Sequence record: PX092659.1
DNA length: 64,000 nucleotides
Strand: one strand, 5' to 3'
From: a phage
The notes under the pieces are model-generated. The model was not told the origin of the DNA, made no database searches, and saw only the letters and a list, made by a program, of their open reading frames with translations. The position numbers were made by a program, and so were the translations under genes. Shown here piece after piece: positions 1 to 60,070 of this stretch (position 1 is its first letter; the number at the start of each line of letters is the position of its first letter).

Positions 1-1317
1 ATGGAAGTATCAAGACCCTACGTTAATACAGTAGATGTTATCGATTTCGGAATAGATAAGCGTTTCTTTCGTTTACCTGTTTCCGGAATACTAGCACAAG
101 AGGGTATCACGCCTAATGGCCCTCAAATAGCAATTATCAATGCCCTAGAAGACCCTAGACATCGTTTTGTAACGGCATGTGTATCACGCCGTGTAGGTAA
201 ATCTTTTATAGCGTATACACTTGGGTTCCTAAAATTGCTGGAACCTAATGTGAAGGTGCTAGTAGTTGCCCCTAACTACTCACTGGCCAATATCGGATGG
301 TCTCAGATTCGTGGTCTCATTAAGAAGTATGGCCTACAAACCGAACGTGAGAACGCTAAAGATAAAGAGATTGAGTTAGCTAATGGTTCTCTATTTAAAC
401 TAGCTTCTGCGGCTCAGGCTGACTCCGCGGTTGGACGTTCATATGATTTTATCATCTTTGACGAGGCGGCAATTTCCGACGTAGGTGGTGATGCCTTCAG
501 GGTTCAGCTGCGCCCTACCCTAGATAAGCCTAATTCTAAGGCTCTATTTATTTCCACCCCTCGTGGAGGTAACTGGTTTAAAGAGTTTTACGCCTACGGA
601 TTCGATGATACGTTACCTAACTGGGTGTCTATTCATGGTACATATCGCGATAACCCACGTGCTGATTTGAATGACATTGAGGAAGCACGTCGTACGGTTA
701 GTAAAAACTACTTCCGCCAGGAATACGAGGCTGACTTCTCTGTATTCGAAGGTCAGATCTTCGATACCTTTAATGCTATTGATCATGTTAAAGACCTTAA
801 AGGTATGCGTCACTTCTTTAAAGATGATGAAGCATTCGAAACATTGCTTGGTATTGACGTTGGTTATCGTGATCCTACAGCAGTTCTTACTATTAAATAT
901 CACTATGATACGGATACTTACTATGTATTAGAAGAGTACCAGCAAGCTGAGAAGACTACAGCCCAACATGCAGCGTATATTCAGCATTGTATAGATCGTT
1001 ATAATGTTGATCGTATCTTTGTTGACTCCGCAGCAGCTCAGTTCCGCCAGGATTTAGCTTATGAACATGAAATTGCATCAGCTCCAGCTAAAAAATCTGT
1101 CCTAGATGGTCTAGCATGTTTACAGGCACTATTCCAACAGGGAAAGATTATTGTAGACGCTTCATGCTCTTCATTAATCCATGCATTGCAGAACTACAAG
1201 TGGGATTTCCAAGAAGGTGAAGAGAAATTATCACGCGAAAAACCACGTCATGATGCTAACTCTCACCTTTGTGATGCGCTGCGCTATGGAATTTACTCTA
1301 TTTCCCGTGGTAAATAA
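1..1317 (+). CDS. terL: terminase large subunit
   Basis: 438-aa ORF beginning at window position 1 with ATG; Walker A-like VSRRVGKS and Walker B-like DFIIFDEAA in the N-terminal ATPase half, acidic nuclease-fold motifs (GIDVGYRD, VDSAAAQ) in the C-terminal half; lies upstream of portal as in T5-like phages. Confidence 0.88.
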   Translation: MEVSRPYVNTVDVIDFGIDKRFFRLPVSGILAQEGITPNGPQIAIINALEDPRHRFVTACVSRRVGKSFIAYTLGFLKLLEPNVKVLVVAPNYSLANIGWSQIRGLIKKYGLQTERENAKDKEIELANGSLFKLASAAQADSAVGRSYDFIIFDEAAISDVGGDAFRVQLRPTLDKPNSKALFISTPRGGNWFKEFYAYGFDDTLPNWVSIHGTYRDNPRADLNDIEEARRTVSKNYFRQEYEADFSVFEGQIFDTFNAIDHVKDLKGMRHFFKDDEAFETLLGIDVGYRDPTAVLTIKYHYDTDTYYVLEEYQQAEKTTAQHAAYIQHCIDRYNVDRIFVDSAAAQFRQDLAYEHEIASAPAKKSVLDGLACLQALFQQGKIIVDASCSSLIHALQNYKWDFQEGEEKLSREKPRHDANSHLCDALRYGIYSISRGK

Positions 1318-1488: not shown

Positions 1489-2163
1489 ATGGGTCGACAA
1501 AAGCTAACAATAAAAGATATAAATATTAGATTAGCTGATCGTGGAATCCAAATTGTCGGTGAATATGTAAACCAACGTACAAAAACAGTATTTAAATGCC
1601 AGAGAGCACACGTTTGGGAAGCAACACCACATTCTATACTCCATATGAGGAGAGGTTGTCCACACTGCTCCAATAATACAATATCGTTAGATGAAGTTAG
1701 TAATAGAATATCTAATATAGGGTATACTCTGTTAAGCAGCTATACTAATGCTAAAACAAAACTACATCTACGCTGCAATAATGGGCATGACTGTTTCATT
1801 ACCTTAGATGGATTGACTCAAGGTAAGAGATGTCCTTATTGTTCTCTTAAATGGGAGAATGGCGGATTCCTCTATATCATGTCCTCCTCTAGTGGTACTA
1901 AAGTAGGCATAAGCTTATACCCTGAGAAACGGCTGAATGAAGTTAAAAGAGAATCTGGATTTTCTGACCTATACTTGTTCACCGTGTATCATCTGCCAGA
2001 TAGAGAGACTGCTTTAGATTTAGAAAAGGAAGTTCACAGAGAATATTATAATAAAAACTGTGGGTTTTCTAATTTTACAGGAAGCACGGAATTTTTTAAT
2101 GTTGCTCCTGAGGATATAGTAATCTTTCTAAGTAGCTTTGGATTGGAGGATTATGGCCACTAA
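1489..2163 (+). CDS. zinc-ribbon plus T5orf172/GIY-YIG-like putative homing endonuclease
   Basis: 224 aa; two N-terminal repeats each ending in CPxC (CPHCS, CPYCS); C-terminal LYIMSSSSGTKVGIS...RL...GSTEFF resembles the T5orf172 (GIY-YIG superfamily) domain; SD TAGGAGA 7 nt upstream of ATG; paralogous to 42986..43651 and 54845..55708. Confidence 0.6.
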   Translation: MGRQKLTIKDINIRLADRGIQIVGEYVNQRTKTVFKCQRAHVWEATPHSILHMRRGCPHCSNNTISLDEVSNRISNIGYTLLSSYTNAKTKLHLRCNNGHDCFITLDGLTQGKRCPYCSLKWENGGFLYIMSSSSGTKVGISLYPEKRLNEVKRESGFSDLYLFTVYHLPDRETALDLEKEVHREYYNKNCGFSNFTGSTEFFNVAPEDIVIFLSSFGLEDYGH

Positions 2164-2590: not shown

Positions 2591-3807
2591 TGGGTTTAAA
2601 AAGCTGGATTACTGAAAAGTTAAATCCGGGTCAACGTATTATAAGAGACATGGAACCAGTTAGTCATCGCACTAACCGTAAGCCTTTTACCACTGGACAA
2701 GCCTATAGCAAGATTGAGATTCTCAATCGAACTGCCAATATGGTTATAGATAGTGCGGCGGAGTGTTCTTATACTGTCGGAGATAAATATAATATTGTTA
2801 CGTACGCTAATGGCGTCAAAACAAAGACTCTAGACACTCTCTTAAATGTACGACCTAATCCATTCATGGATATAAGCACATTCCGTAGACTTGTAGTCAC
2901 TGACCTACTTTTTGAAGGTTGTGCGTACATCTATTGGGATGGCACATCGCTTTACCACGTCCCGGCTGCTCTTATGCAGGTCGAGGCAGATGCCAATAAG
3001 TTTATCAAAAAATTTATATTTAATAATCAGATAGACTATCGCGTAGATGAGATTATCTTTATAAAGGATAACAGTTACGTGTGTGGCACAAACTCTCAAA
3101 TTTCTGGACAATCTCGTGTTGCTACTGTTATTGATTCTCTTGAGAAGCGTTCTAAGATGCTTAACTTTAAAGAGAAATTCCTCGATAACGGAACCGTGAT
3201 TGGTCTTATTCTTGAGACGGATGAAATCCTGAACAAGAAATTGCGTGAGCGTAAACAAGAAGAATTACAACTCGATTATAATCCTAGTACGGGTCAGTCT
3301 TCTGTCCTGATTCTAGATGGTGGTATGAAAGCTAAACCGTACTCCCAAATATCCTCTTTTAAAGATCTAGACTTTAAGGAAGACATCGAAGGATTTAATA
3401 AATCTATCTGTCTAGCCTTTGGTGTTCCGCAAGTACTGCTTGATGGTGGTAATAACGCGAACATTCGACCAAATATCGAACTGTTCTATTACATGACTAT
3501 CATTCCTATGCTGAACAAACTGACTAGTTCTCTTACTTTCTTTTTTGGTTATAAGATCACTCCTAATACTAAGGAGGTAGCTGCATTAACACCAGATAAA
3601 GAAGCTGAGGCTAAACATTTAACCTCATTGGTTAATAATGGTATTATGACTGGTAACGAAGCTCGTTTAGAGCTGAACCTTGAACCTTTAGATGATGAGC
3701 AGATGGATAAGATTCGTATTCCTGCTAACGTTGCTGGTTCTGCAACAGGTGTATCTGGTCAAGAAGGTGGCAGACCTCAAGGTTCCACCGAGGGAGATAA
3801 AGAATGA
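2590..3807 (+). CDS. portal protein
   Basis: 405 aa, position between terminase and prohead protease, size matches T5 portal (pb7-like); translationally coupled to neighbours. Confidence 0.82.
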   Translation: MGLKSWITEKLNPGQRIIRDMEPVSHRTNRKPFTTGQAYSKIEILNRTANMVIDSAAECSYTVGDKYNIVTYANGVKTKTLDTLLNVRPNPFMDISTFRRLVVTDLLFEGCAYIYWDGTSLYHVPAALMQVEADANKFIKKFIFNNQIDYRVDEIIFIKDNSYVCGTNSQISGQSRVATVIDSLEKRSKMLNFKEKFLDNGTVIGLILETDEILNKKLRERKQEELQLDYNPSTGQSSVLILDGGMKAKPYSQISSFKDLDFKEDIEGFNKSICLAFGVPQVLLDGGNNANIRPNIELFYYMTIIPMLNKLTSSLTFFFGYKITPNTKEVAALTPDKEAEAKHLTSLVNNGIMTGNEARLELNLEPLDDEQMDKIRIPANVAGSATGVSGQEGGRPQGSTEGDKE

Positions 3808-4298
3808 TTGATTATAATGGTCTAAAGACCATTTTTGGTGAAAAACTACCAGAACCTCATATCTTCTTTGCTACGGTTGCTGCGCATAAACATGTTCCTA
3901 GCTATGCTTTTCTGCGTAGAGAACTAGGAATTTCATCTGCGCATACTAACCGTAAAGTATGGAAGAAATTTGTAGAGGCTTATGGTAAAGCAATTCCTCC
4001 GGCTCCACCGGCTCCACCATTAACTCTTTCTAAAGATTTAACTGCGAGCATGTCAGTTGAAGAGGGAGCAGCATTAACACTTTCTGTTACTGCAACTGGT
4101 GGTACTGGTCCATATACTTATGCATGGACTAAAGATGGTTCTCCTATTCCGGAAGCTTCAGGAGCTACCTATACTAAGCCTGCAGCAGCTACGGAGGATT
4201 CTGGAGCCTATAAAGTAACTGTAACAGATAGTAAGCAAGTAAGCAAGGACTCTACTACATGTGCTGTGACAGTTAATCCTACTGTTCCTGGAGGCTAA
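3804..4298 (+). CDS. head decoration protein with C-terminal Ig-like domain (pb10-like)
   Basis: 164 aa; PPAPPAPP linker followed by Ig-like fold signature (LTLSVTATGGTGPYTYAWTKDGSPIP...SGAYKVTVTD); size equals T5 pb10. Confidence 0.6.
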   Translation: MIDYNGLKTIFGEKLPEPHIFFATVAAHKHVPSYAFLRRELGISSAHTNRKVWKKFVEAYGKAIPPAPPAPPLTLSKDLTASMSVEEGAALTLSVTATGGTGPYTYAWTKDGSPIPEASGATYTKPAAATEDSGAYKVTVTDSKQVSKDSTTCAVTVNPTVPGG

Positions 4299-42692: not shown

Positions 42693-43004
42693 TTATTCTT
42701 TTTCCGCCAGGCGTTTAGCTTCTTTTTCTACTTCTAATAAAACCTCACTATTAGATAATATTTTAGTAAATGCCTTAAATAAATGAGATGTTGTTTCTAG
42801 AGTGTATGGCATACTGAATCCACTTTTTGTTGGAAACCATTCACCTTCTATATCTTGGAGCCAGTACCTAATTCCTAAGTATAGATTCCCCCTAAACTCA
42901 GATACAGTTAGCCTAACCTGTTGGCCATCTTCTCTTTCCCAGATAACTATGGACTGATCATCTACATGTCCAACATAATCCTGATTTACATTATCTCCCG
43001 ACAT
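42693..43004 (-). CDS. putative PC4-like ssDNA-binding protein
   Basis: 103 aa; RLTVSEFRGNLYLGIRYW...WFPTKSGFS pattern resembles PC4/YdbC-like fold; assignment by motif only. Confidence 0.4.
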   Translation of the reverse strand: MSGDNVNQDYVGHVDDQSIVIWEREDGQQVRLTVSEFRGNLYLGIRYWLQDIEGEWFPTKSGFSMPYTLETTSHLFKAFTKILSNSEVLLEVEKEAKRLAEKE

Positions 43005-43651
43005 TTTATTGCTCCCTGACTTAGGAGATATTCCTCTGCCTCCTCTGGTTGAATATTAAAAAACTCAGTAGAACCATCAAATATTGATTCTGTAAATATC
43101 TGTGTAGTACTAAAAAATCTATGAGCTTTATTTTCTAGATTATACGCTGACTCATCATAAGAGTATACTCCATATATACTCAAGTCCTCCAGATTAGAAT
43201 CTTTTTTGATCTCTAAAAGTCTTCTATCTGGACTTTTAGATGTTCCTATTTTTGTGCCTAGTTGTGGGCTATAAAATACGTATAAATAGCTAGTAGATTT
43301 ACACATAGGGCATGATCTACCAGCATTTTTAACTTTATCTACACTACTAGTCCACGTGTGTCCGTGGGTGCACTCAAATATTGCCGGACTTTGGGAATTT
43401 ATATAGGAGGATATAAGTTTTATACCTTTAGTACTTAACTGTTGATTTATGACCTCTACAGTTAGTTTAGCTTTGCCACTACAATAAGGGCAGCCACTAC
43501 CTTTCCGTATATTACTTAAATATCCCTTCCATTGATGACCTTTTGAACACTCAAATATAGCGGGTGTTCTTATATTAGCCCATTCACTCACTATATGAAA
43601 ACCTAGTGGCTCTAACTCTTTATTTATTTGCTCTTCTGTTAATTTTTTCAC
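42986..43651 (-). CDS. zinc-ribbon plus T5orf172/GIY-YIG-like putative homing endonuclease
   Basis: 221 aa; two repeats ending in CPYC/CPMC; C-terminal YLYVFYSPQLGTKIGTSKSPDRRL...GSTEFF; GTG start; paralog of 1489..2163 and 54845..55708. Confidence 0.6.
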   Translation of the reverse strand: MKKLTEEQINKELEPLGFHIVSEWANIRTPAIFECSKGHQWKGYLSNIRKGSGCPYCSGKAKLTVEVINQQLSTKGIKLISSYINSQSPAIFECTHGHTWTSSVDKVKNAGRSCPMCKSTSYLYVFYSPQLGTKIGTSKSPDRRLLEIKKDSNLEDLSIYGVYSYDESAYNLENKAHRFFSTTQIFTESIFDGSTEFFNIQPEEAEEYLLSQGAIKCREIM

Positions 43652-45498: not shown

Positions 45499-45527
45499 AT
45501 TATACAGAAAATTTTTCCTGAAAGCAA
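45499..45527 (-). promoter_or_regulatory. strong T5 early promoter, PN25-like
   Basis: minus strand reads AAAAATTTATTTGCTTTCAGGAAAAATTTTCTGTATAATAGATTCATAAATTTGAGAGAGGAG; TTGCTT(45527-45522)-17 bp-TATAAT(45504-45499); near-identical to the T5 PN25 promoter as I recall it. Confidence 0.8.
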
Positions 45528-52255: not shown

Positions 52256-52469
52256 TTTTCACCTGTTCTCTGAAGTTTTGCCCAATACTGTCTAATAGCT
52301 CAGCTAATTCTTTATTGCCTTTCTCCATTAAGGTATTAGCAATAACTTCTAGCATAGTAGCGCAGGATTCAACACCATCCTTATAGCCAGTTTCCCAGTG
52401 CTGCATTAATGCGTTTTCCAAAGCGGCGTTTAAACCCTTATCTGGTAGTATCGGCTTCAAGAATGCCAT
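52248..52469 (-). CDS. hypothetical small protein
   Basis: 73 aa; ATG 52469 with strong SD GAGGAG; overlaps upstream ORF by 32 nt. Confidence 0.4.
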   Translation of the reverse strand: MAFLKPILPDKGLNAALENALMQHWETGYKDGVESCATMLEVIANTLMEKGNKELAELLDSIGQNFREQVKNA

Positions 52470-52641
52470 AAAGTTTCTCCTCTAATTCCATAACACGATT
52501 TTCATAAGAGGCACGCAACTTTTCAATTGCCAGTGCACGCACCGTAACCTCATTAGAATTAATAGCTAATTGGGCCAGATCTTCTGTTTCCATACGTCCG
52601 TTGTAAATTAAGCGATATTTAAGATGTTTTACGTTTTTCAT
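52438..52641 (-). CDS. hypothetical small protein
   Basis: 67-aa ORF with predicted helical C-terminus. Confidence 0.35.
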   Translation of the reverse strand: MKNVKHLKYRLIYNGRMETEDLAQLAINSNEVTVRALAIEKLRASYENRVMELEEKLYGILEADTTR

Positions 52642-52650
52642 TCTTGTTCC

Positions 52651-52932
52651 TTAGTTCTGTACTGTAAATTCATTCTTATCACAGTGAGCATAATAATACC
52701 CATACATACGATAAATCTTCACAGCCTTAGTAGACCCCTTCGATTCTTCGTAATCAATCCAGAGCCACTTGTCTTTACCTACATAATGTACCCGAAACTT
52801 CTTAACTTTCTTATCATTCCATGTTGCAACAACACGACGATAATCAAATCCGCCCAACCAATCCAGAGCTTTACGTTCTTCACTAGGCTCTCCAAGATGG
52901 GAGACATCTACTTTAGGAAGCAACTCGCTCAT
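52651..52932 (-). CDS. hypothetical protein
   Basis: 93 aa; first gene after promoter, SD GAGAGGAG. Confidence 0.45.
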   Translation of the reverse strand: MSELLPKVDVSHLGEPSEERKALDWLGGFDYRRVVATWNDKKVKKFRVHYVGKDKWLWIDYEESKGSTKAVKIYRMYGYYYAHCDKNEFTVQN

Positions 52933-52960
52933 AACTTTCTCCTCTCAAATTTATAAATCT

Positions 52961-52989
52961 ATTATATATAAATTTTTGGCTGAAAGCAA
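52961..52989 (-). promoter_or_regulatory. T5-type early promoter
   Basis: minus strand TTGCTT(52989-52984)-17 bp-TATAAT(52966-52961) followed by ATAGATTTATAAATTTGAGAGGAG. Confidence 0.7.
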
Positions 52990-53024
52990 ATAAAATAAAA
53001 GCCAGGTCGACTAGCAACCCGGCT
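52988..53024 (-). terminator. intrinsic terminator after nrdD
   Basis: minus-strand AGCCGGG...CCUGGCU hairpin (one G-U pair) followed by UUUAUUUUAUUU. Confidence 0.6.
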
Positions 53025-53031
53025 GATTAGC

Positions 53032-54858
53032 TTACTTAAGATTTAAGTGTTTTACTCTACCAAGAACTTCTTTTTGTTTCCCAGAATTGAAAGGCCTACT
53101 GCCAGGAGATCCCAGGTACCCGCAAACCCTACGTGTAACCTCTATTTCTTCAGACCCACAACTCGGACATACAAACCCACGTTCAGAGGCAACAGATTCA
53201 CCCATATACCCACAGTTGAAGCACTCATCAATTGGTATATTAACACCAATATAATGGCTACATTCTAGCCCCTTATCCACCACATACTCAAGAGCTTTGT
53301 GGAACTTTTTCATTTGAGGTAGTTCCACAAATGATATATTACCACCATTAGCTATTTTGGTAAAATGAGCCTCGTACTCAAATTTAGTATCTGGAGCTAC
53401 CTTCTCTCTTACGTCCAAATGGTGACTATTAGTAAGATAGCCTTTGTCTGTTAACCAAGAATACTCTGGGAATCTACGTTCTAGTAATTTATTAAAACGA
53501 TTACATAGAGACTCACTAGGAGTAGCATACAAGCTAAACCCAAGATTAGTCTCATTAGCTTTAACTTCGCAACGATTTTTTAGGTGAGTGAGAACTTCCT
53601 CTGTAAATTCAATACAGTCCCTATGGGTCTGTGGTAAACTAAACATTATTTGGCACATCTCATAGACCCCAATATACCCAAGAGATACAGAGGATCTACC
53701 CTCAAAAATAGGCCATACATATTCTTCCCCTTCTAAACGTGCACCAAACCCACCGTGCATATAAAGAATAGGGGCTTGTTTAGCCTTAACTTTCTTCAGT
53801 CTGTTTAAGAAGAAGTCATGCGCTTCAAAAGCCTCATCCACATATTTGTCTAGAATACCCCAGAAATCTTCAAAAACTCCATCTGCCTCAGCAGCAACCA
53901 TAGGTAGATTGATAGACACAACACCTAAATTATTACGTCCTGCAATTTCTCCAGAGGGGATAGCAGATAAAAAACTACGACAACCCATAGGGGCTTTAAA
54001 ATCACCAGTAACAGCTACAACTCTCTCGTAACTTAAATAGTCTGGATACATACGAGTAGCAGAACACTCAAGTGCTAGCTGTTTTATATCATAGTTAGGA
54101 TCACCTGGGTTTTTATTTAACCCTTCTTTAACTGAGAATACTAGTTTAGGGAAGATAGGGGTTGACTCAGCAGCACCTAAACCTTTAATGCGATTTTGGA
54201 GGATGGCTTTCTGAATCATCCTTTCCTCCCACTCCTGCCCTAATCCAAAGCCAAGCGTAACAAAAGGGGTCTGCCCATTAGAGTTAAATAATGAATTAGT
54301 TTCATACTCTAGAGCTTGGAATGCATCATAACACTCTTTTTCAGTAAGCTCAGTAGCATACACAGCAGCTTTTCTTTCATCCTTGAGCCAACGTAGCCCA
54401 CGACCCAGATGTTTATTGTAAGACTTTCTGACATACGGGGCTAGAACCTCGTCGATACGATCAATAGAGGTGCCACCATACTGAGCACCAGATACTTGGG
54501 CAATAATCTGAGCAGTGATTGCACATGCAGTAGTTATGGATTTAGGAGTTTCAATATTTGCATTACCAATTTTAGTACCATTCTTCAGCATGCCACCAAG
54601 GTCTACTAAGCAACAGTTAGTGTACCCCTGCGCCCTGTAATCCATATCATGAATGTGTATCTTACCTAGATTATGTGCGTCTAATAGATGTTTGGGTAAT
54701 TCCTGCGATACTAAATACTTGTTGATTTCTCCGGCTAATAAGTCTCTTTGAGTATGGAACATCTCACTAGGCTTATTAGCATTATTATGTTGTAAGTCCT
54801 TGTCAGCAGTTAGAGTGAGCAGGCCTTTGCAATTCTCAATTAATTCATTCTCTGTCAT
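53032..54858 (-). CDS. nrdD: anaerobic ribonucleoside-triphosphate reductase
   Basis: 608 aa; C-terminal glycyl-radical motif RVCGYLGSP and zinc site CFNCGY...CPSCGS; catalytic Cys region. Confidence 0.9.
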   Translation of the reverse strand: MTENELIENCKGLLTLTADKDLQHNNANKPSEMFHTQRDLLAGEINKYLVSQELPKHLLDAHNLGKIHIHDMDYRAQGYTNCCLVDLGGMLKNGTKIGNANIETPKSITTACAITAQIIAQVSGAQYGGTSIDRIDEVLAPYVRKSYNKHLGRGLRWLKDERKAAVYATELTEKECYDAFQALEYETNSLFNSNGQTPFVTLGFGLGQEWEERMIQKAILQNRIKGLGAAESTPIFPKLVFSVKEGLNKNPGDPNYDIKQLALECSATRMYPDYLSYERVVAVTGDFKAPMGCRSFLSAIPSGEIAGRNNLGVVSINLPMVAAEADGVFEDFWGILDKYVDEAFEAHDFFLNRLKKVKAKQAPILYMHGGFGARLEGEEYVWPIFEGRSSVSLGYIGVYEMCQIMFSLPQTHRDCIEFTEEVLTHLKNRCEVKANETNLGFSLYATPSESLCNRFNKLLERRFPEYSWLTDKGYLTNSHHLDVREKVAPDTKFEYEAHFTKIANGGNISFVELPQMKKFHKALEYVVDKGLECSHYIGVNIPIDECFNCGYMGESVASERGFVCPSCGSEEIEVTRRVCGYLGSPGSRPFNSGKQKEVLGRVKHLNLK

Positions 54859-55708
54859 TGATTATTTCCTCGATAAACTTTATAGCTACTTTTGGTTCAA
54901 TATTGAAGAATTCCGTAGCGCCATCAAAATCTTTGTAATGGCAATTCTGTTCTTTAAAGTAGTTATGAGCTAATTTTTCGATTCGAACTGCACTACTATA
55001 TTCGCCAATTTCAAATACTTTAAGTATTTCCAAATCAATAAGGTGGCCACTAGATTTAATATGTAGAAGCCTACGCTCTGGATTGTTAGACCTACCTATT
55101 TTAACTCCATGTGTGGGGCTATGCATAACATATATCTTAGTACTTTCTAAATCTCTATAGCTACAGTAAGGACAACCGTTCCCTCTTAATACAGATCCTG
55201 GAGTAGCTCCCCACCTATGCCCTGCGCCACAGAGAAAGGTAGTCTTAGTATTCGCATTAACATATTCACCTACTATTCTGATATTTCTGGCAGTAAGACG
55301 ATCATTTATAACACTAATACTAAGTTTCTGCTTATTAATAGCACAAGACGGACAGCCACTCCCCCTATTAATTATGCTATTAAGCGTAGTAGTCCACTCA
55401 TGACCACAAATACACCTAAATTTAGTGTTTATATCAACACTATTTTTATATCCCCCCAACAATGTAATACCTCTGTCCTGTAATACAGAACTAATTTTAT
55501 CAATATCTAGTTTACGGCTATTAGTAGAGCAAGTAGGACAATTGGTCTTTCCATTCCTAATAGCGTCAAATTTAGCTGTCCATTGATGGCCATATTCACA
55601 CTGATACGTATGCCTATACCTAGAATTTTGATACGGCTTATCCACCATAGTAAAACCACGCTCGGCTAGGCATTTATCTACTTCTTCTTGGGTTAATTTT
55701 TTCGGCAT
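54845..55708 (-). CDS. zinc-ribbon plus T5orf172/GIY-YIG-like putative homing endonuclease
   Basis: approx 288 aa from ATG 55708 (track extends to TTG 55765); four repeats ending CPTC/CPSC/CPYC; C-terminal IYVMHSPTHGVKIGRSNNPERRL...GATEFF; consensus promoter upstream. Confidence 0.6.
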   Translation of the reverse strand: MPKKLTQEEVDKCLAERGFTMVDKPYQNSRYRHTYQCEYGHQWTAKFDAIRNGKTNCPTCSTNSRKLDIDKISSVLQDRGITLLGGYKNSVDINTKFRCICGHEWTTTLNSIINRGSGCPSCAINKQKLSISVINDRLTARNIRIVGEYVNANTKTTFLCGAGHRWGATPGSVLRGNGCPYCSYRDLESTKIYVMHSPTHGVKIGRSNNPERRLLHIKSSGHLIDLEILKVFEIGEYSSAVRIEKLAHNYFKEQNCHYKDFDGATEFFNIEPKVAIKFIEEIINDRE

Positions 55709-55736
55709 TACTCTTCTCCATAGAATTTTTACATTT

Positions 55737-55765
55737 ATTATACTAAACATTATCCACCATGTCAA
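55737..55765 (-). promoter_or_regulatory. consensus sigma70 promoter
   Basis: minus strand TTGACA(55765-55760)-17 bp-TATAAT(55742-55737), then SD GGAGAAGAG and ATG 55708. Confidence 0.7.
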
Positions 55766-55902
55766 TTAAAATTTTCTTTCGCCATCTAATACTGTAATAT
55801 TTCGCGTATAAATAGTTGAGTATCTAGTATCACACATCCCACGTTAAAAGCAAGCAAATTTTTTATTTAAATGCAATATCATAGGCTTATTTAAAATTGT
55901 AG

Positions 55903-55931
55903 TTGCTTTTTACTGTATATATTGGTATAAT
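55903..55931 (+). promoter_or_regulatory. T5-type promoter upstream of phoH (divergent from 55737..55765)
   Basis: TTGCTT(55903-55908)-17 bp-TATAAT(55926-55931) with TG at -15/-14 (extended -10). Confidence 0.65.
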
Positions 55932-56004
55932 ATATTTGTAAGTTGATAAACAAGATCTTTTTGTTGATCCTCTGTTAGCGAAGTACACTATAGGAGTGTT
56001 ATTT

Positions 56005-56757
56005 ATGGGAAAAGCACGTCAAAAAAGAGAGAACCGCAACGGTTCAAGAAAGCGTGGCAACAAATATGAGAATAACGTAATTCAGGCGGATTTTTCTAAT
56101 GATTACGCTAACCCAGTTGCTAAATCCCTAGTAGGTAAAAACCGCGAGCAAAAATCATATATCAATATGATCAAGAACAACACAGTGACTGTGGGTATTG
56201 GTGAGCCGGGTACAGGTAAAACCTTTATTCCGTCTGTTCTTGCAGCTCAGGAACTCGTAGACATTCACTCAGATATTGAGCAAGTGATCCTCGTACGTCC
56301 TAATGAACCTCTAGGTAAGTCTCTTGGTATGCTTCCTGGTGATCTAGCGGAAAAGCTAGAGCCTTGGTTGGAGCCAATAGCTGATGGTATGAAATGGGCC
56401 ATCGGCGATCATGCGTATAAAGGATATGTCGAACGTCAGAAAATTAAATTTTTGGCTGTCGAACATGCTCGTGGCAGAACTTTCAACAACTCCTATGTAA
56501 TTGTCGATGAAGCTCAGAATATTTCCGTTGAGGCAATGATTTGTCTCCTAACTCGTGTAGGACAAGACTGCCGTTTAATTATCTGCGGAGATATAGCTCA
56601 GAAAGACATTAAAGGTGACTCAGGTCTAGCACTCCTTATGGAAGTCTATGAGAAATACGAAAATGCCCCATTCTCAATGATCGAATTGATTGATAACGTT
56701 CGTTCTGTCGAGTCTAAAGCATTCTATGATATTTTTAAAGACATGGGGAAGGTGTAA
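56005..56757 (+). CDS. phoH: PhoH-like ATPase
   Basis: Walker A GEPGTGKTF, Walker B VIVDEAQN; ATG 56005 with SD TAGGAGTG (track ORF begins at GTG 55996). Confidence 0.85.
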   Translation: MGKARQKRENRNGSRKRGNKYENNVIQADFSNDYANPVAKSLVGKNREQKSYINMIKNNTVTVGIGEPGTGKTFIPSVLAAQELVDIHSDIEQVILVRPNEPLGKSLGMLPGDLAEKLEPWLEPIADGMKWAIGDHAYKGYVERQKIKFLAVEHARGRTFNNSYVIVDEAQNISVEAMICLLTRVGQDCRLIICGDIAQKDIKGDSGLALLMEVYEKYENAPFSMIELIDNVRSVESKAFYDIFKDMGKV

Positions 56758-56758
56758 T

Positions 56759-56980
56759 ATGGGAAACGTCGTTCATCTGAGCCGTAAAACTAAAATACAT
56801 CGTACTTCACTGAGTGCTGCTAATATTATTACACGTAAAGAAGGAGAAGAAAGTCCTAAGACAACCCTAGCGTGGAAAATTGTAACCTCAAACCCAAATA
56901 AACCCTTCAATTATAACGAGCTGAGCACCTCCATAGATATTCTATTAAAAGAAGTAGCTAGAGCTAAAGTAATTGAATAA
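56759..56980 (+). CDS. hypothetical small protein
   Basis: 73 aa from ATG 56759 with SD GGGGAAGGTG; overlaps phoH stop (track ORF 56690..56980 extends upstream in-frame). Confidence 0.4.
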   Translation: MGNVVHLSRKTKIHRTSLSAANIITRKEGEESPKTTLAWKIVTSNPNKPFNYNELSTSIDILLKEVARAKVIE

Positions 56981-57122
56981 GCTAAAAAGCTAGACTGGTA
57001 ATATACAGGGCCTGGGTATGAAAATACTCGGGCCTTTTCTATCAGAAAATTTTATTTGCCTAATGACCAATAATAATGTAGAATATTCCTTAAATCCTGA
57101 TAACTATAAAAAGGAAAGCCAA

Positions 57123-59499: not shown

Positions 59500-59528
59500 T
59501 TGCTAATCGCTACCAGATTTGCTATAAT
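59500..59528 (+). promoter_or_regulatory. T5-type promoter upstream of HNH gene and nrdB
   Basis: TTGCTA(59500-59505)-17 bp-TATAAT(59523-59528) with TG extended -10. Confidence 0.7.
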
Positions 59529-59554
59529 ATCTCCATTAGTTAAGGAGATTAGTT

Positions 59555-60070
59555 TTGATAACACAAGATGAATTAAAAAGGATTCTGGAGTATAATCCAG
59601 ATGAAGGAACATTTACTTGGTTAAATAACCAAGAAGTACACAATAAAGTAAGAGGATTACCTGCTGGCTGTTTAAAACCACACTCAGTAGACCCTAACCG
59701 AAAAGACTTAGTGATACAAATCAAGGGCAAGAAGTACCCTGCACAAAATATTGCCTTCCTGTACATGACAGGAAACTTACCTAAAGTTATGGTTGACCAT
59801 ATAGATGGAGATTCACTAAACTATAAGTGGACTAATCTAAGAGAAGCAGACTGGCAATTAAATAGTCAAAATAGAAAAACCAGTAAAAACAATATATTGG
59901 GTACTAAGAATATTCGGAAGAAAGGGTCTGGATTTCAAGTTAGAAAATCCATTAACGGAAAAGAATATGTGAAAACTCTTCCAACTCTAGAAGAGGCAAT
60001 AGAGTATCGAGATTCTTTAATCCTCTCTATAACCAAAGATCCAACACTACTTAGAAACACAGATAAATAG
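59555..60070 (+). CDS. HNH homing endonuclease with AP2-like domain, between nrdA and nrdB
   Basis: 171 aa; TTG start with SD TAAGGAG; HNH core AQNIAFLYMTGNLPKVMVDHIDGDSLNYKWTN; paralog of 30142..30618 (both begin MITQD.LK). Confidence 0.8.
   Translation: MITQDELKRILEYNPDEGTFTWLNNQEVHNKVRGLPAGCLKPHSVDPNRKDLVIQIKGKKYPAQNIAFLYMTGNLPKVMVDHIDGDSLNYKWTNLREADWQLNSQNRKTSKNNILGTKNIRKKGSGFQVRKSINGKEYVKTLPTLEEAIEYRDSLILSITKDPTLLRNTDK

Follow-up and report, generated by a model that had tools for sequence, protein, structure and literature searches.

The analysed stretch of phage DNA, hereafter the window (64,000 nt; record PX092659.1), comes, by its sequence, from a member of the T5-like phages (Tequintavirus). 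Identity to Salmonella phage EH1 is 96% across the region, to which 445 T5-like records in GenBank also show a match. On the minus strand, a transcription unit is laid out in the order promoter, endonuclease gene, nrdD, and terminator. The putative free-standing homing endonuclease gene (54845..55708) encodes 287 amino acids from an ATG at 55708..55706, which is preceded by GGAG at 55719..55716. The program-made open reading frame extends further, to 55765, only because the −35 hexamer of the promoter supplies its first TTG. The downstream gene, nrdD (53032..54858), specifies an anaerobic ribonucleotide reductase of a 608-aa allele class. The two genes overlap by 14 nt, nrdD starting before the endonuclease stop, and the Shine–Dalgarno sequence of nrdD, GAGG, sits within the 3′ end of the endonuclease gene. 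The unit is closed by a strong intrinsic terminator (53000..53024, minus strand) consisting of a 10-bp stem followed by a T-run, and a terminator is also annotated after nrdD at the equivalent place in the T5 record. No terminator-like site was found between the promoter (55737..55765, minus strand) and nrdD. The endonuclease gene is very probably transcribed from this promoter as the first cistron, and the arrangement of the unit suggests a bicistronic mRNA that would carry both genes.

The zinc-finger repeat region of the endonuclease protein (approximately residues 20–185; 55154..55651, minus strand) comprises three C...H / CPxC units, i.e., DNA-binding repeats of the DUF4379 and CapR types. 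Pfam returns the DUF4379 treble-clef zinc finger three times (55 bits, three stretches) and CapR in two stretches (43 bits); the CPxC cysteines are conserved in the homologue alignment, and a β-β-α unit is repeated three times in the AF2 model of the region. The C-terminal T5orf172/GIY-YIG nuclease domain follows at residues 189–287 (54848..55144, minus strand). The protein matches the Pfam families PF10544 T5orf172 (41.0 bits; cut-off, 20) and PF13455 MUG113 (44.1 bits over residues 192–282; cut-off, 22.3), and a GIY-YIG α/β fold is predicted for the nuclease domain from the AF2 model and fold comparison. Tyr193, Lys203, Gly205, Arg213, Glu244, His248, and Glu266 are invariant in an alignment of 28 homologues and are all present in the window protein, which suggests catalytic roles for these residues. 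A sequence search of solved structures with the endonuclease protein recovered the DUF4379 zinc finger alone, and weakly (E = 0.055); the nuclease domain found no match there.

The protein is further assigned to PHROG 681, "endonuclease" (E = 1e-63), and orthologues of the gene carry the annotation putative homing endonuclease or GIY-YIG nuclease. Taken at the level of sequence, the identification of the 54845..55708 product as a putative homing endonuclease of the T5orf172 type, within the GIY-YIG superfamily, is supported. Intact copies of the gene show a dN/dS of about 0.17, as compared with 0.02 for nrdD, and they look functional by this measure, by their invariant nuclease residues, and by the predicted GIY-YIG fold. 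The earlier note had named a T5orf172-like gene and a putative homing endonuclease at this position; the first designation is upheld by the open reading frame, the ATG with its GGAG, and the Pfam match, and the second by the family profile together with the sporadic presence, degenerating copies, and recombination-boundary position described below.

The consensus promoter and its counterparts in T5-like phages

The promoter at 55765..55737 matches the σ70 consensus TTGACA-17-TATAAT at 12/12 positions, and its −10 hexamer lies 28 nt from the endonuclease ATG. As the earlier note had claimed, it stands directly upstream of the gene and diverges from the phoH promoter, with which it is arranged back-to-back. 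The latter (TTGCTT-17-TATAAT with a TGn extended −10; 55903..55931, plus strand) is of the typical T5 type, and promoters are annotated at its position in the T5 and AKFV33 records. Transcription of the endonuclease–nrdD unit is predicted to start near 55730, which would give a 22-nt leader (55709..55730, minus strand) with the Shine–Dalgarno GGAG 7 nt before the ATG. The fold of 55640–55730 has an energy of −11.5 kcal/mol (z = 0.22), and the ribosome-binding site is unpaired in the centroid; no RNA structure of the kind known from T4 I-TevI or segB, sequestering the ribosome-binding site of either the endonuclease gene or nrdD, was found, the fold energies being no better than those of shuffled sequences.

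This is the sole perfect TTGACA-17-TATAAT within the 64 kb. Shuffled sequence is expected to yield 0.12 such matches per window, and at least one appeared in 11 of 100 shuffles, so that the hexamer match by itself only marginally exceeds chance. The promoter is nevertheless considered real because it is intergenic, correctly oriented, and followed after 28 nt by a start codon that has a Shine–Dalgarno sequence, and because it has T5-type flanks (AAAATTTTAA upstream, forming an AT-rich block near −43, and TATAATA) and an equivalent element in all 29 + 6 related loci. A chance match was thus rejected on conservation and not on the weak shuffle statistics.

A T5 early promoter family, including P-N25 and others, has been described with its consensus (PMC3326045). 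Strong σ70 promoters are the norm for the T5 early region. The window promoter shares the spacing (17–18 nt in the family), the AT-rich block, and TATAATA with this family but carries TTGACA in place of the consensus −35 hexamer TTGCTT/TTGCTA. Of the 13 T5-type promoters in the 64-kb window, no other does so, the remaining 12 having TTGCTT/TTGCTA. One of the 13 precedes an HNH gene: the gene at 59555..60070 has TTGCTA-17-TATAAT at 59500..59528 and AAGGAG directly upstream, and at least one further HNH gene has a plausible Shine–Dalgarno sequence at an internal ATG. The earlier contrast, with HNH genes said to be devoid of promoters and Shine–Dalgarno sequences of their own, therefore fails for the gene at 59555..60070. 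Furthermore, perfect hexamers should not be equated with maximal output, since escape from the promoter can turn into the limiting step (PMC10911233). No T5 transcriptome or transcription start-site map was found in the literature, and the main text of a CRISPRi-ART fitness screen of T5 (PMC11879866) mentions neither "nrdD" nor "ribonucleotide reductase".

The relatives reveal to which gene the promoter belongs. Among T5-like loci from IMG/VR, TTGACA-17-TATAAT is found on the nrdD strand in 29 of 29 (26 at 12/12 and 3 at 11/12), with spacers and flanks of at least five unrelated types, and the TTGACA −35 hexamer at the nrdD locus is conserved in all relatives. The endonuclease gene is present in 6 of these loci; in 19 of the 29, including T5, it is missing and the promoter lies approximately 30 nt before nrdD. 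In T5 itself, which has no endonuclease gene between phoH and nrdD, TTGACA-17-TATAAT is located 29 nt before nrdD, inside the feature annotated as "regulatory promoter, nrdD" in NC_005859 (53884..53958). The T5 nrdD promoter and the window promoter are alike in position and orientation relative to phoH and the first cistron, in the perfect TTGACA-17-TATAAT, in the AT-rich block, and in TATAATA; they differ in spacer and flanks, and in the window, the first cistron is the endonuclease gene and not nrdD. A consensus promoter before nrdD is thus universal in T5-like phages, with or without the endonuclease gene.

We therefore regard it as highly probable that the perfect promoter is the early promoter of nrdD, read by the host RNA polymerase, and that a free-standing homing endonuclease occupies the first-cistron slot before nrdD. 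The endonuclease gene would be parked between the nrdD promoter and nrdD and, by virtue of this slot, would be transcribed along with nrdD without incurring a regulatory cost. The strength of the promoter would reflect selection on nrdD and on T5 early expression, and not selection on the endonuclease. Since all T5-like phages use it for nrdD, the promoter is real but ordinary and gives no sign of domestication. The earlier view that this promoter drives the endonuclease accordingly holds in part: the gene is very probably its first cistron, but the claim that the promoter is the gene's own is not supported, the same element preceding nrdD elsewhere.

Sporadic endonuclease gene within a divergent nrdD module

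An intact endonuclease gene is present in 27 of the 445 T5-like GenBank records (~6%) and a remnant in a further 14 (~3%), while it is missing from about 90% of them, including T5; T5 biology therefore does not need the endonuclease. In Kenya-K44 and HildyBeyeler, a 673-nt internal deletion has reduced the gene to a frameshifted stump, which is further decayed in Gostya9, DT57C, and DT571/2. These remnant-bearing relatives keep the promoter unchanged, as well as the Shine–Dalgarno sequence. The same intergenic slot holds other T5orf172 alleles in AKFV33 (orf100, 48% identity) and L009 (41%), and an HNH gene occupies the phoH–nrdD slot in L011.

These observations bear on the proposal of the earlier note that so strong a promoter may point to a domesticated endonuclease, recruited for host-DNA degradation or recombination; under this reading, the consensus promoter would have evolved to give strong expression. 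Purifying selection on the intact copies, an open ribosome-binding site, and the position of the gene directly behind a consensus promoter would fit such a role, and co-opted T5orf172-type precedents are known in CapR of PLE (PMC8096241) and Odn of ICP1 (PMC8263062). Yet the gene is absent from the great majority of T5-like records, viable isolates carry deleted or frameshifted remnants while retaining the promoter, in phages without the gene, nrdD is under the direct control of the same promoter, the slot interchangeably holds diverged alleles or an HNH gene, and selection on the endonuclease is far weaker than that on nrdD (0.17 vs. 0.02). Moreover, host-DNA degradation in T5 is a pre-early, A1-dependent function that is encoded elsewhere. 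The gene also differs from domesticated derivatives of the CapR/Odn type in being sporadic and decaying with its nuclease domain and motif residues intact. Domestication is thus not borne out, and we consider it very unlikely.

A second alternative is a dual-function protein, endonuclease and regulator, whose zinc fingers bind the divergent phoH–nrdD promoter region and autoregulate the unit, which would explain the tolerance of a strong promoter. I-TevI autorepresses transcription at its own promoter through an operator resembling its homing site (PMC2988022), and repression by CapR-type zinc fingers is known (PMC8096241), with CapR acting at the ICP1 capsid promoter; three such fingers are encoded by the window gene, which lies within 150 bp of two back-to-back promoters. 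However, these promoters are at work in phages that lack the protein, whether they bear a remnant or no endonuclease gene at all, and this reading appears extremely improbable.

The surroundings of the gene raise the question of what travels with it. In blastn against T5, the window is 93.8% identical down to 55817, 68–69% identical in nrdD, and again ~90% identical from 52638. This delimits a divergent module of 3.2 kb (52640..55817) that contains the promoter, the endonuclease gene, the nrdD allele, and a small ORF, within DNA of 92–98% identity to T5. At the phoH-side edge of this module stands the endonuclease gene, beside nrdD, a conserved and important gene, and at a recombination boundary; the breakpoint of homology with T5 at 55817 is about 50 nt upstream of the −35 hexamer. 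The NrdD class of 608 aa shares about 60% protein identity with the 624-aa class of T5, and NrdD class tracks the endonuclease perfectly in the sample: the 608-aa and 615-aa proteins occur with the gene or its remnants and the 624-aa proteins without. Additionally, in its exact form, the 141-nt promoter segment is confined to the 41 records in which the endonuclease gene is intact or survives as a remnant. Because this segment is endonuclease-linked and inside the divergent island, the promoter copy in the window travels with the module and not with the backbone.

It could thus be argued that the promoter is part of a mobile cassette, either brought in by the endonuclease or forming one cargo with the endonuclease gene and the nrdD allele. 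The restriction of the 141-nt segment, the position of the breakpoint, and the perfect correlation of NrdD allele class with endonuclease status all speak for this, as does the discordance, in some pairs, between the endonuclease gene and nrdD in their synonymous divergence. Against it, endonuclease-free modules have an equally perfect promoter, identically placed with respect to the first cistron and preceded by similar sequence (GAAAAATTATATTGACAT against GAAAATTTTAATTGACAT); the consensus promoter of nrdD therefore predates the endonuclease gene and is independent of it. The remnant-bearing phages, too, retain the promoter under selection without the gene. As an account of the promoter, the cassette is improbable. 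Functionally, it is compatible with a resident nrdD promoter, and the two differ in history alone.

In a broader form, the endonuclease gene, the consensus promoter, and the divergent nrdD allele might constitute a single 3.2-kb mobile module, with early expression driving the replacement of rival modules; we hold this to be a rather unlikely, though conceivable, arrangement. Sliding-window identity among the endonuclease-bearing phages displays mosaicism with no clean co-conversion tract. A full HEG-island as defined by Barth et al. (2023) was rejected, since a nuclease gene is present at one edge only: divergent cargo within conserved flanks is found, but not the bracket of two endonucleases, and, at the opposite edge, ORFs 52651..52932 and 52438..52641 match PHROGs whose function is unknown and which carry no nuclease annotation.

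Comparison with known endonucleases and biological meaning

The closest described systems are the T5orf172 genes of Barth, Dunham & Seed 2023 (PMC10448857), which are enriched in T5-like phages and of which 33% adjoin ribonucleotide reductase genes. They share with the window gene the domain architecture with repeated CapR/DUF723/DUF4379 zinc fingers, the phage group, the ribonucleotide reductase neighbourhood, variable presence, in-frame or frameshift decay, and a position at boundaries of genetic exchange; the edge-of-divergent-module pattern is thus already described for T5orf172 homing endonucleases. Unlike a HEG-island, the nrdD module of the window is flanked by one endonuclease gene and is not two-sided. 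The promoter-proximal, first-cistron placement is absent from that discussion, in which the word "promoter" occurs 0 times. Homing of T5orf172 genes is experimentally unverified even in ICP1 (PMC10448857), and for the window protein, homing and the cleavage of endonuclease-free phoH–nrdD alleles are put forward as a proposal. The endonuclease would cut the endonuclease-free phoH–nrdD alleles of co-infecting T5-like phages, and the recipient would then gain a copy of the endonuclease gene through repair, often together with the promoter and nrdD allele linked to it.

In T4, free-standing endonuclease genes make use of promoters upstream of them and become part of polycistronic messages; promoters specific to an endonuclease are of the middle or late class, and often the ribosome-binding site is sequestered or a terminator curbs expression (PMC2988022). 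The seg/mob genes of T4, such as mobE between nrdA and nrdB (Edgell, Gibb & Belfort 2010, PMC2988022), are likewise intergenic beside nucleotide-metabolism genes, likewise use a resident upstream promoter and a polycistronic message, and have short overlaps with their neighbours. In contrast, the window gene is the predicted first cistron of an early σ70 unit with an unstructured ribosome-binding site, and its nuclease subfamily is T5orf172 and not classical GIY-YIG or HNH. Expression of the window endonuclease thus looks early and unrestrained from its sequence context, a real difference from the T4 paradigm. CapR (PLE) and Odn (ICP1) have a zinc-finger DNA-binding module homologous to that of the window gene and demonstrate that the family can be co-opted; CapR is the DNA-binding part acting as a repressor, and Odn has a swapped RepA_N specificity domain. 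In the window, by contrast, the gene keeps the standard zinc-finger plus nuclease architecture and, with its sporadic and decaying distribution, shows no sign of co-option.

A textbook-perfect promoter directly before a selfish gene is therefore not evidence of domestication, as the promoter here belongs to nrdD. The retention of an exact TTGACA-17-TATAAT before nrdD across modules that are 68% identical gives a natural, and rare, example of a full-consensus promoter that has been conserved. If the single mobile module were true, σ70-driven early expression would allow endonuclease-free co-infecting T5-like genomes to be cut before they replicate, and the allele of a metabolic gene would be replaced by a single-sided endonuclease cargo unit expressed early and not late as in T4. 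Given the apparent early, unrestrained expression and the linkage of endonuclease allele to NrdD class, we propose that the BASEL phages Bas34 SelmaRatti, with an intact gene, and Bas33 HildyBeyeler, with a remnant, constitute a ready experimental pair for T5orf172 homing.

The promoter and its transcription unit

The window comes from a T5-like phage: across 53000..57100 it shares 96% identity with Salmonella phage EH1, and the same region is matched by 445 T5-like records (Demerecviridae, Tequintavirus). The minus-strand TTGACA-17-TATAAT promoter at 55765..55737 matches the consensus at 12/12 positions and is the sole perfect match within 64 kb. It stands back-to-back with the plus-strand promoter of phoH at 55903..55931 (TTGCTT-17-TATAAT, TGn-extended), an arrangement that the earlier note had described correctly, together with the endonuclease ORF and the coordinates of gene and promoter. 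By itself, the match is weak evidence because at least one perfect promoter also occurred in 11 of 100 shuffles of the window (0.12 expected). The mechanical minus-strand ORF, which ends with the stop at 54845, opens at position 55765 with a TTG that is itself the first half of the -35 hexamer; the real start of the T5orf172-type gene (54845..55708, minus strand, 287 aa) is the ATG at 55708, which is preceded by GGAG at 55719..55716. The -10 hexamer lies 28 nt before this ATG, and transcription is predicted to start at about 55730, leaving a leader of 22 nt that, folded with the first codons, displays no significant structure (z = 0.22).

The stop codon of the endonuclease gene (54845..54847) lies 11 nt inside nrdD, the anaerobic ribonucleotide reductase gene, whose ATG is at 54858; the two genes overlap by 14 nt, and the nrdD Shine-Dalgarno sequence, GAGG, is located within the 3' end of the endonuclease gene. 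A search from the promoter to nrdD revealed no terminator, and a minus-strand terminator with a 10-bp stem and a T-run is positioned at 53024..53000, 8 nt beyond the nrdD stop. Based on this layout and the like annotation of T5 in RefSeq, where the equivalent order is promoter, nrdD, terminator and next promoter, the promoter heads a two-gene unit of the endonuclease gene followed by nrdD, along which the predicted transcript would run. The proposal that a homing endonuclease is transcribed from the consensus promoter is supported.

On the other side of the divergent region, a 73-aa ORF downstream of phoH (56759..56980, plus strand) falls into PHROG 5357, a family that bears the label 'tail length tape measure protein', and RefSeq records give the gene in that slot the same name (T5.097, annotated at 159 nt). 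This label is implausible, given how short the protein is and that the region is one of nucleotide metabolism, and it is likely a propagated mis-annotation.

Conservation of the promoter in relatives

Kenya-K44 and HildyBeyeler have each lost codons about 6 to 225 of the endonuclease gene to an internal deletion of 673 nt. No zinc finger survives, the nuclease domain lacks its first half, and the frame is shifted; in HildyBeyeler it reaches a stop after 18 codons. In Gostya9, DT57C and DT571/2, the gene is reduced to a decayed 3' stump. The promoter hexamers, their spacing and the Shine-Dalgarno sequence are unchanged in all five. The T5 locus contains no endonuclease gene; TTGACA-17-TATAAT with another spacer is located 29 nt before nrdD and is labelled 'promoter, nrdD' in the T5 record. 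In AKFV33 the slot is filled by another T5orf172 gene, which has two fingers and 48% identity and lies behind TTGACA-17-TATACT. Furthermore, among 29 T5-like IMG/VR loci retrieved through PhoH, a consensus promoter is present on the nrdD strand in every one (12/12 in 26 loci, 11/12 in three). Its spacers and flanks represent five or more unrelated backgrounds, and 19 of the 29 loci have a promoter-to-nrdD interval without an endonuclease gene.

Since the promoter is kept in relatives with a decayed endonuclease gene or none, these comparisons are decisive: the consensus promoter is a conserved feature that belongs to nrdD and its transcription unit, and the first-cistron position held by nrdD in T5 is exactly the place taken by the endonuclease gene in the window. 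We consider it very probable that the endonuclease gene is a passenger on the nrdD promoter; in this reading its transcript, cleavage by its product and homing are predicted steps. The suggestion that a promoter of its own points to domestication is unsupported: the promoter belongs to the nrdD unit, the gene is sporadic and decaying, and T5 lacks it. Host-DNA degradation in T5 is a pre-early, A1-dependent function.

The endonuclease gene and its probable mobility

The product matches the Pfam families DUF4379, a treble-clef zinc finger, in three stretches (55 bits), CapR (43 bits), T5orf172 (41 bits, cut-off 20) and MUG113 (44 bits). The nuclease residues Y193, K203, G205, R213, E244, H248 and E266 are invariant across 28 homologues, and dN/dS is about 0.17 among intact copies (0.02 for nrdD). 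Of the 445 GenBank records with the locus, 27 contain an intact orthologue and 14 contain remnants. The copy of phage H8 (L021, AC171169) carries a one-base insertion just past the ATG, ATGCCCGAAAA vs ATGCCGAAAA, which would frameshift the gene; the gene may be on its way to becoming a pseudogene, or the extra base may be a sequencing error.

Other T5orf172 alleles occupy the phoH-nrdD intergenic region elsewhere, namely allele B in AKFV33 and locus L016 and allele C in L009 (41% identity). Additionally, the IMG/VR T5-like phage L011 contains a 163-aa HNH-type ORF (3327..3818, plus strand; motif HRMIF...HIDRDKENNRIENL) between the phoH and nrdD promoters, running in the phoH direction, opposite to the nrdD-side endonuclease genes; thus, the divergent promoter region is an insertion hot spot for endonuclease genes of multiple families. 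Elsewhere in the window there are two further T5orf172 genes and five HNH_3 genes. The two T5orf172 paralogues, each with two zinc fingers, lie at 1489..2163 (plus strand) and 42986..43651 (minus strand), with 33% and 36% identity to the 54845..55708 protein, respectively; the latter begins with a GTG directly after a terminator hairpin, and no obvious Shine-Dalgarno sequence is present at that start. Sporadic presence, remnants, alternative occupants, paralogues, dN/dS and invariant residues together suggest an active, mobile and dispensable homing endonuclease, not a fixed phage function.

The nrdD module and the expression context

Identity between the window and T5 is 92-94% on either side of a stretch from 55817 to about 52640, where it collapses; within it, nrdD shares 68% DNA identity and about 60% protein identity with its T5 counterpart. 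The small ORF past the nrdD terminator is replaced in T5 relative to the window: this ORF (52651..52932, minus strand, 93 aa, PHROG 7953, unknown function) gives way to unrelated sequence in T5 (T5.100) and also in several phages that are close relatives in other respects. The divergent island has its far edge at this ORF. NrdD (53032..54858 in the window; loci L007-L035) falls into three sharply distinct classes of about 60% protein identity, despite flanks that are 92-98% identical. Within this sample, class and endonuclease status correlate perfectly: the 608-aa class always accompanies allele A or C, or remnants, the 615-aa class accompanies allele B, and the 624-aa T5 type never occurs with an endonuclease gene. 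T5 itself has an nrdD ORF of 574 aa, although its closest relatives have 624 aa, and the ORF of L019 is 440 aa long; C-terminal truncations, frameshifts or sequencing errors are possible causes. Since the exact 141-nt promoter segment is limited to the 41 records with the endonuclease gene or its remnants, the window's promoter copy travels with the nrdD module, with the endonuclease gene at the module edge. T5orf172 genes, which contain repeated CapR/DUF723/DUF4379 zinc fingers, are enriched in T5-like phages, adjoin ribonucleotide reductase genes in 33% of cases and are located at boundaries of genetic exchange (Barth, Dunham and Seed, PMC10448857). The window shows this pattern; unlike the two-sided HEG-island of that study, the window module has a nuclease gene on only one edge.

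The window contains 13 T5-type promoters (TTG[AC][CT][AT]-16..18-TATAAT) with AT-rich blocks upstream, including one at the T5-annotated P-N25 position and one immediately before the HNH gene at 59555. This HNH_3 gene, between nrdA and nrdB (59500..60070 with its promoter, plus strand), has a TTG start codon with AAGGAG directly ahead and its own promoter, TTGCTA-17-TATAAT, at 59500..59528 (plus strand), where T5 annotates a promoter ahead of hegH. It is a second endonuclease gene placed as promoter-first cistron beside a ribonucleotide reductase gene, and the earlier note's contrast with HNH genes, said to lack promoters and Shine-Dalgarno sequences of their own, is partly wrong in that it fails for this gene. 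The minus-strand promoters at 52961..52989, after the nrdD terminator, and 45499..45527, the position annotated 'promoter P-N 25' in T5, are each TTGCTT-17-TATAAT followed by AGATT(C/T)ATAAATTTGAGAG; because they are near-copies (reciprocal 87% blastn matches), promoter cassettes are duplicated inside the genome.

T5-like phages contain about 32 strong host-polymerase promoters (PMC3326045), and a full consensus does not guarantee maximal output, since promoter escape can become limiting (PMC10911233). Free-standing endonuclease genes of T4 commonly harness resident upstream promoters, usually middle or late ones, with RNA structure as a restraint (PMC2988022). The gene family, its architecture, its neighbourhood and the T5 nrdD promoter have all been described or annotated before. 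The one real difference from the T4 paradigm, and the sole remaining point of interest, is the apparently early, unrestrained placement of the endonuclease gene.
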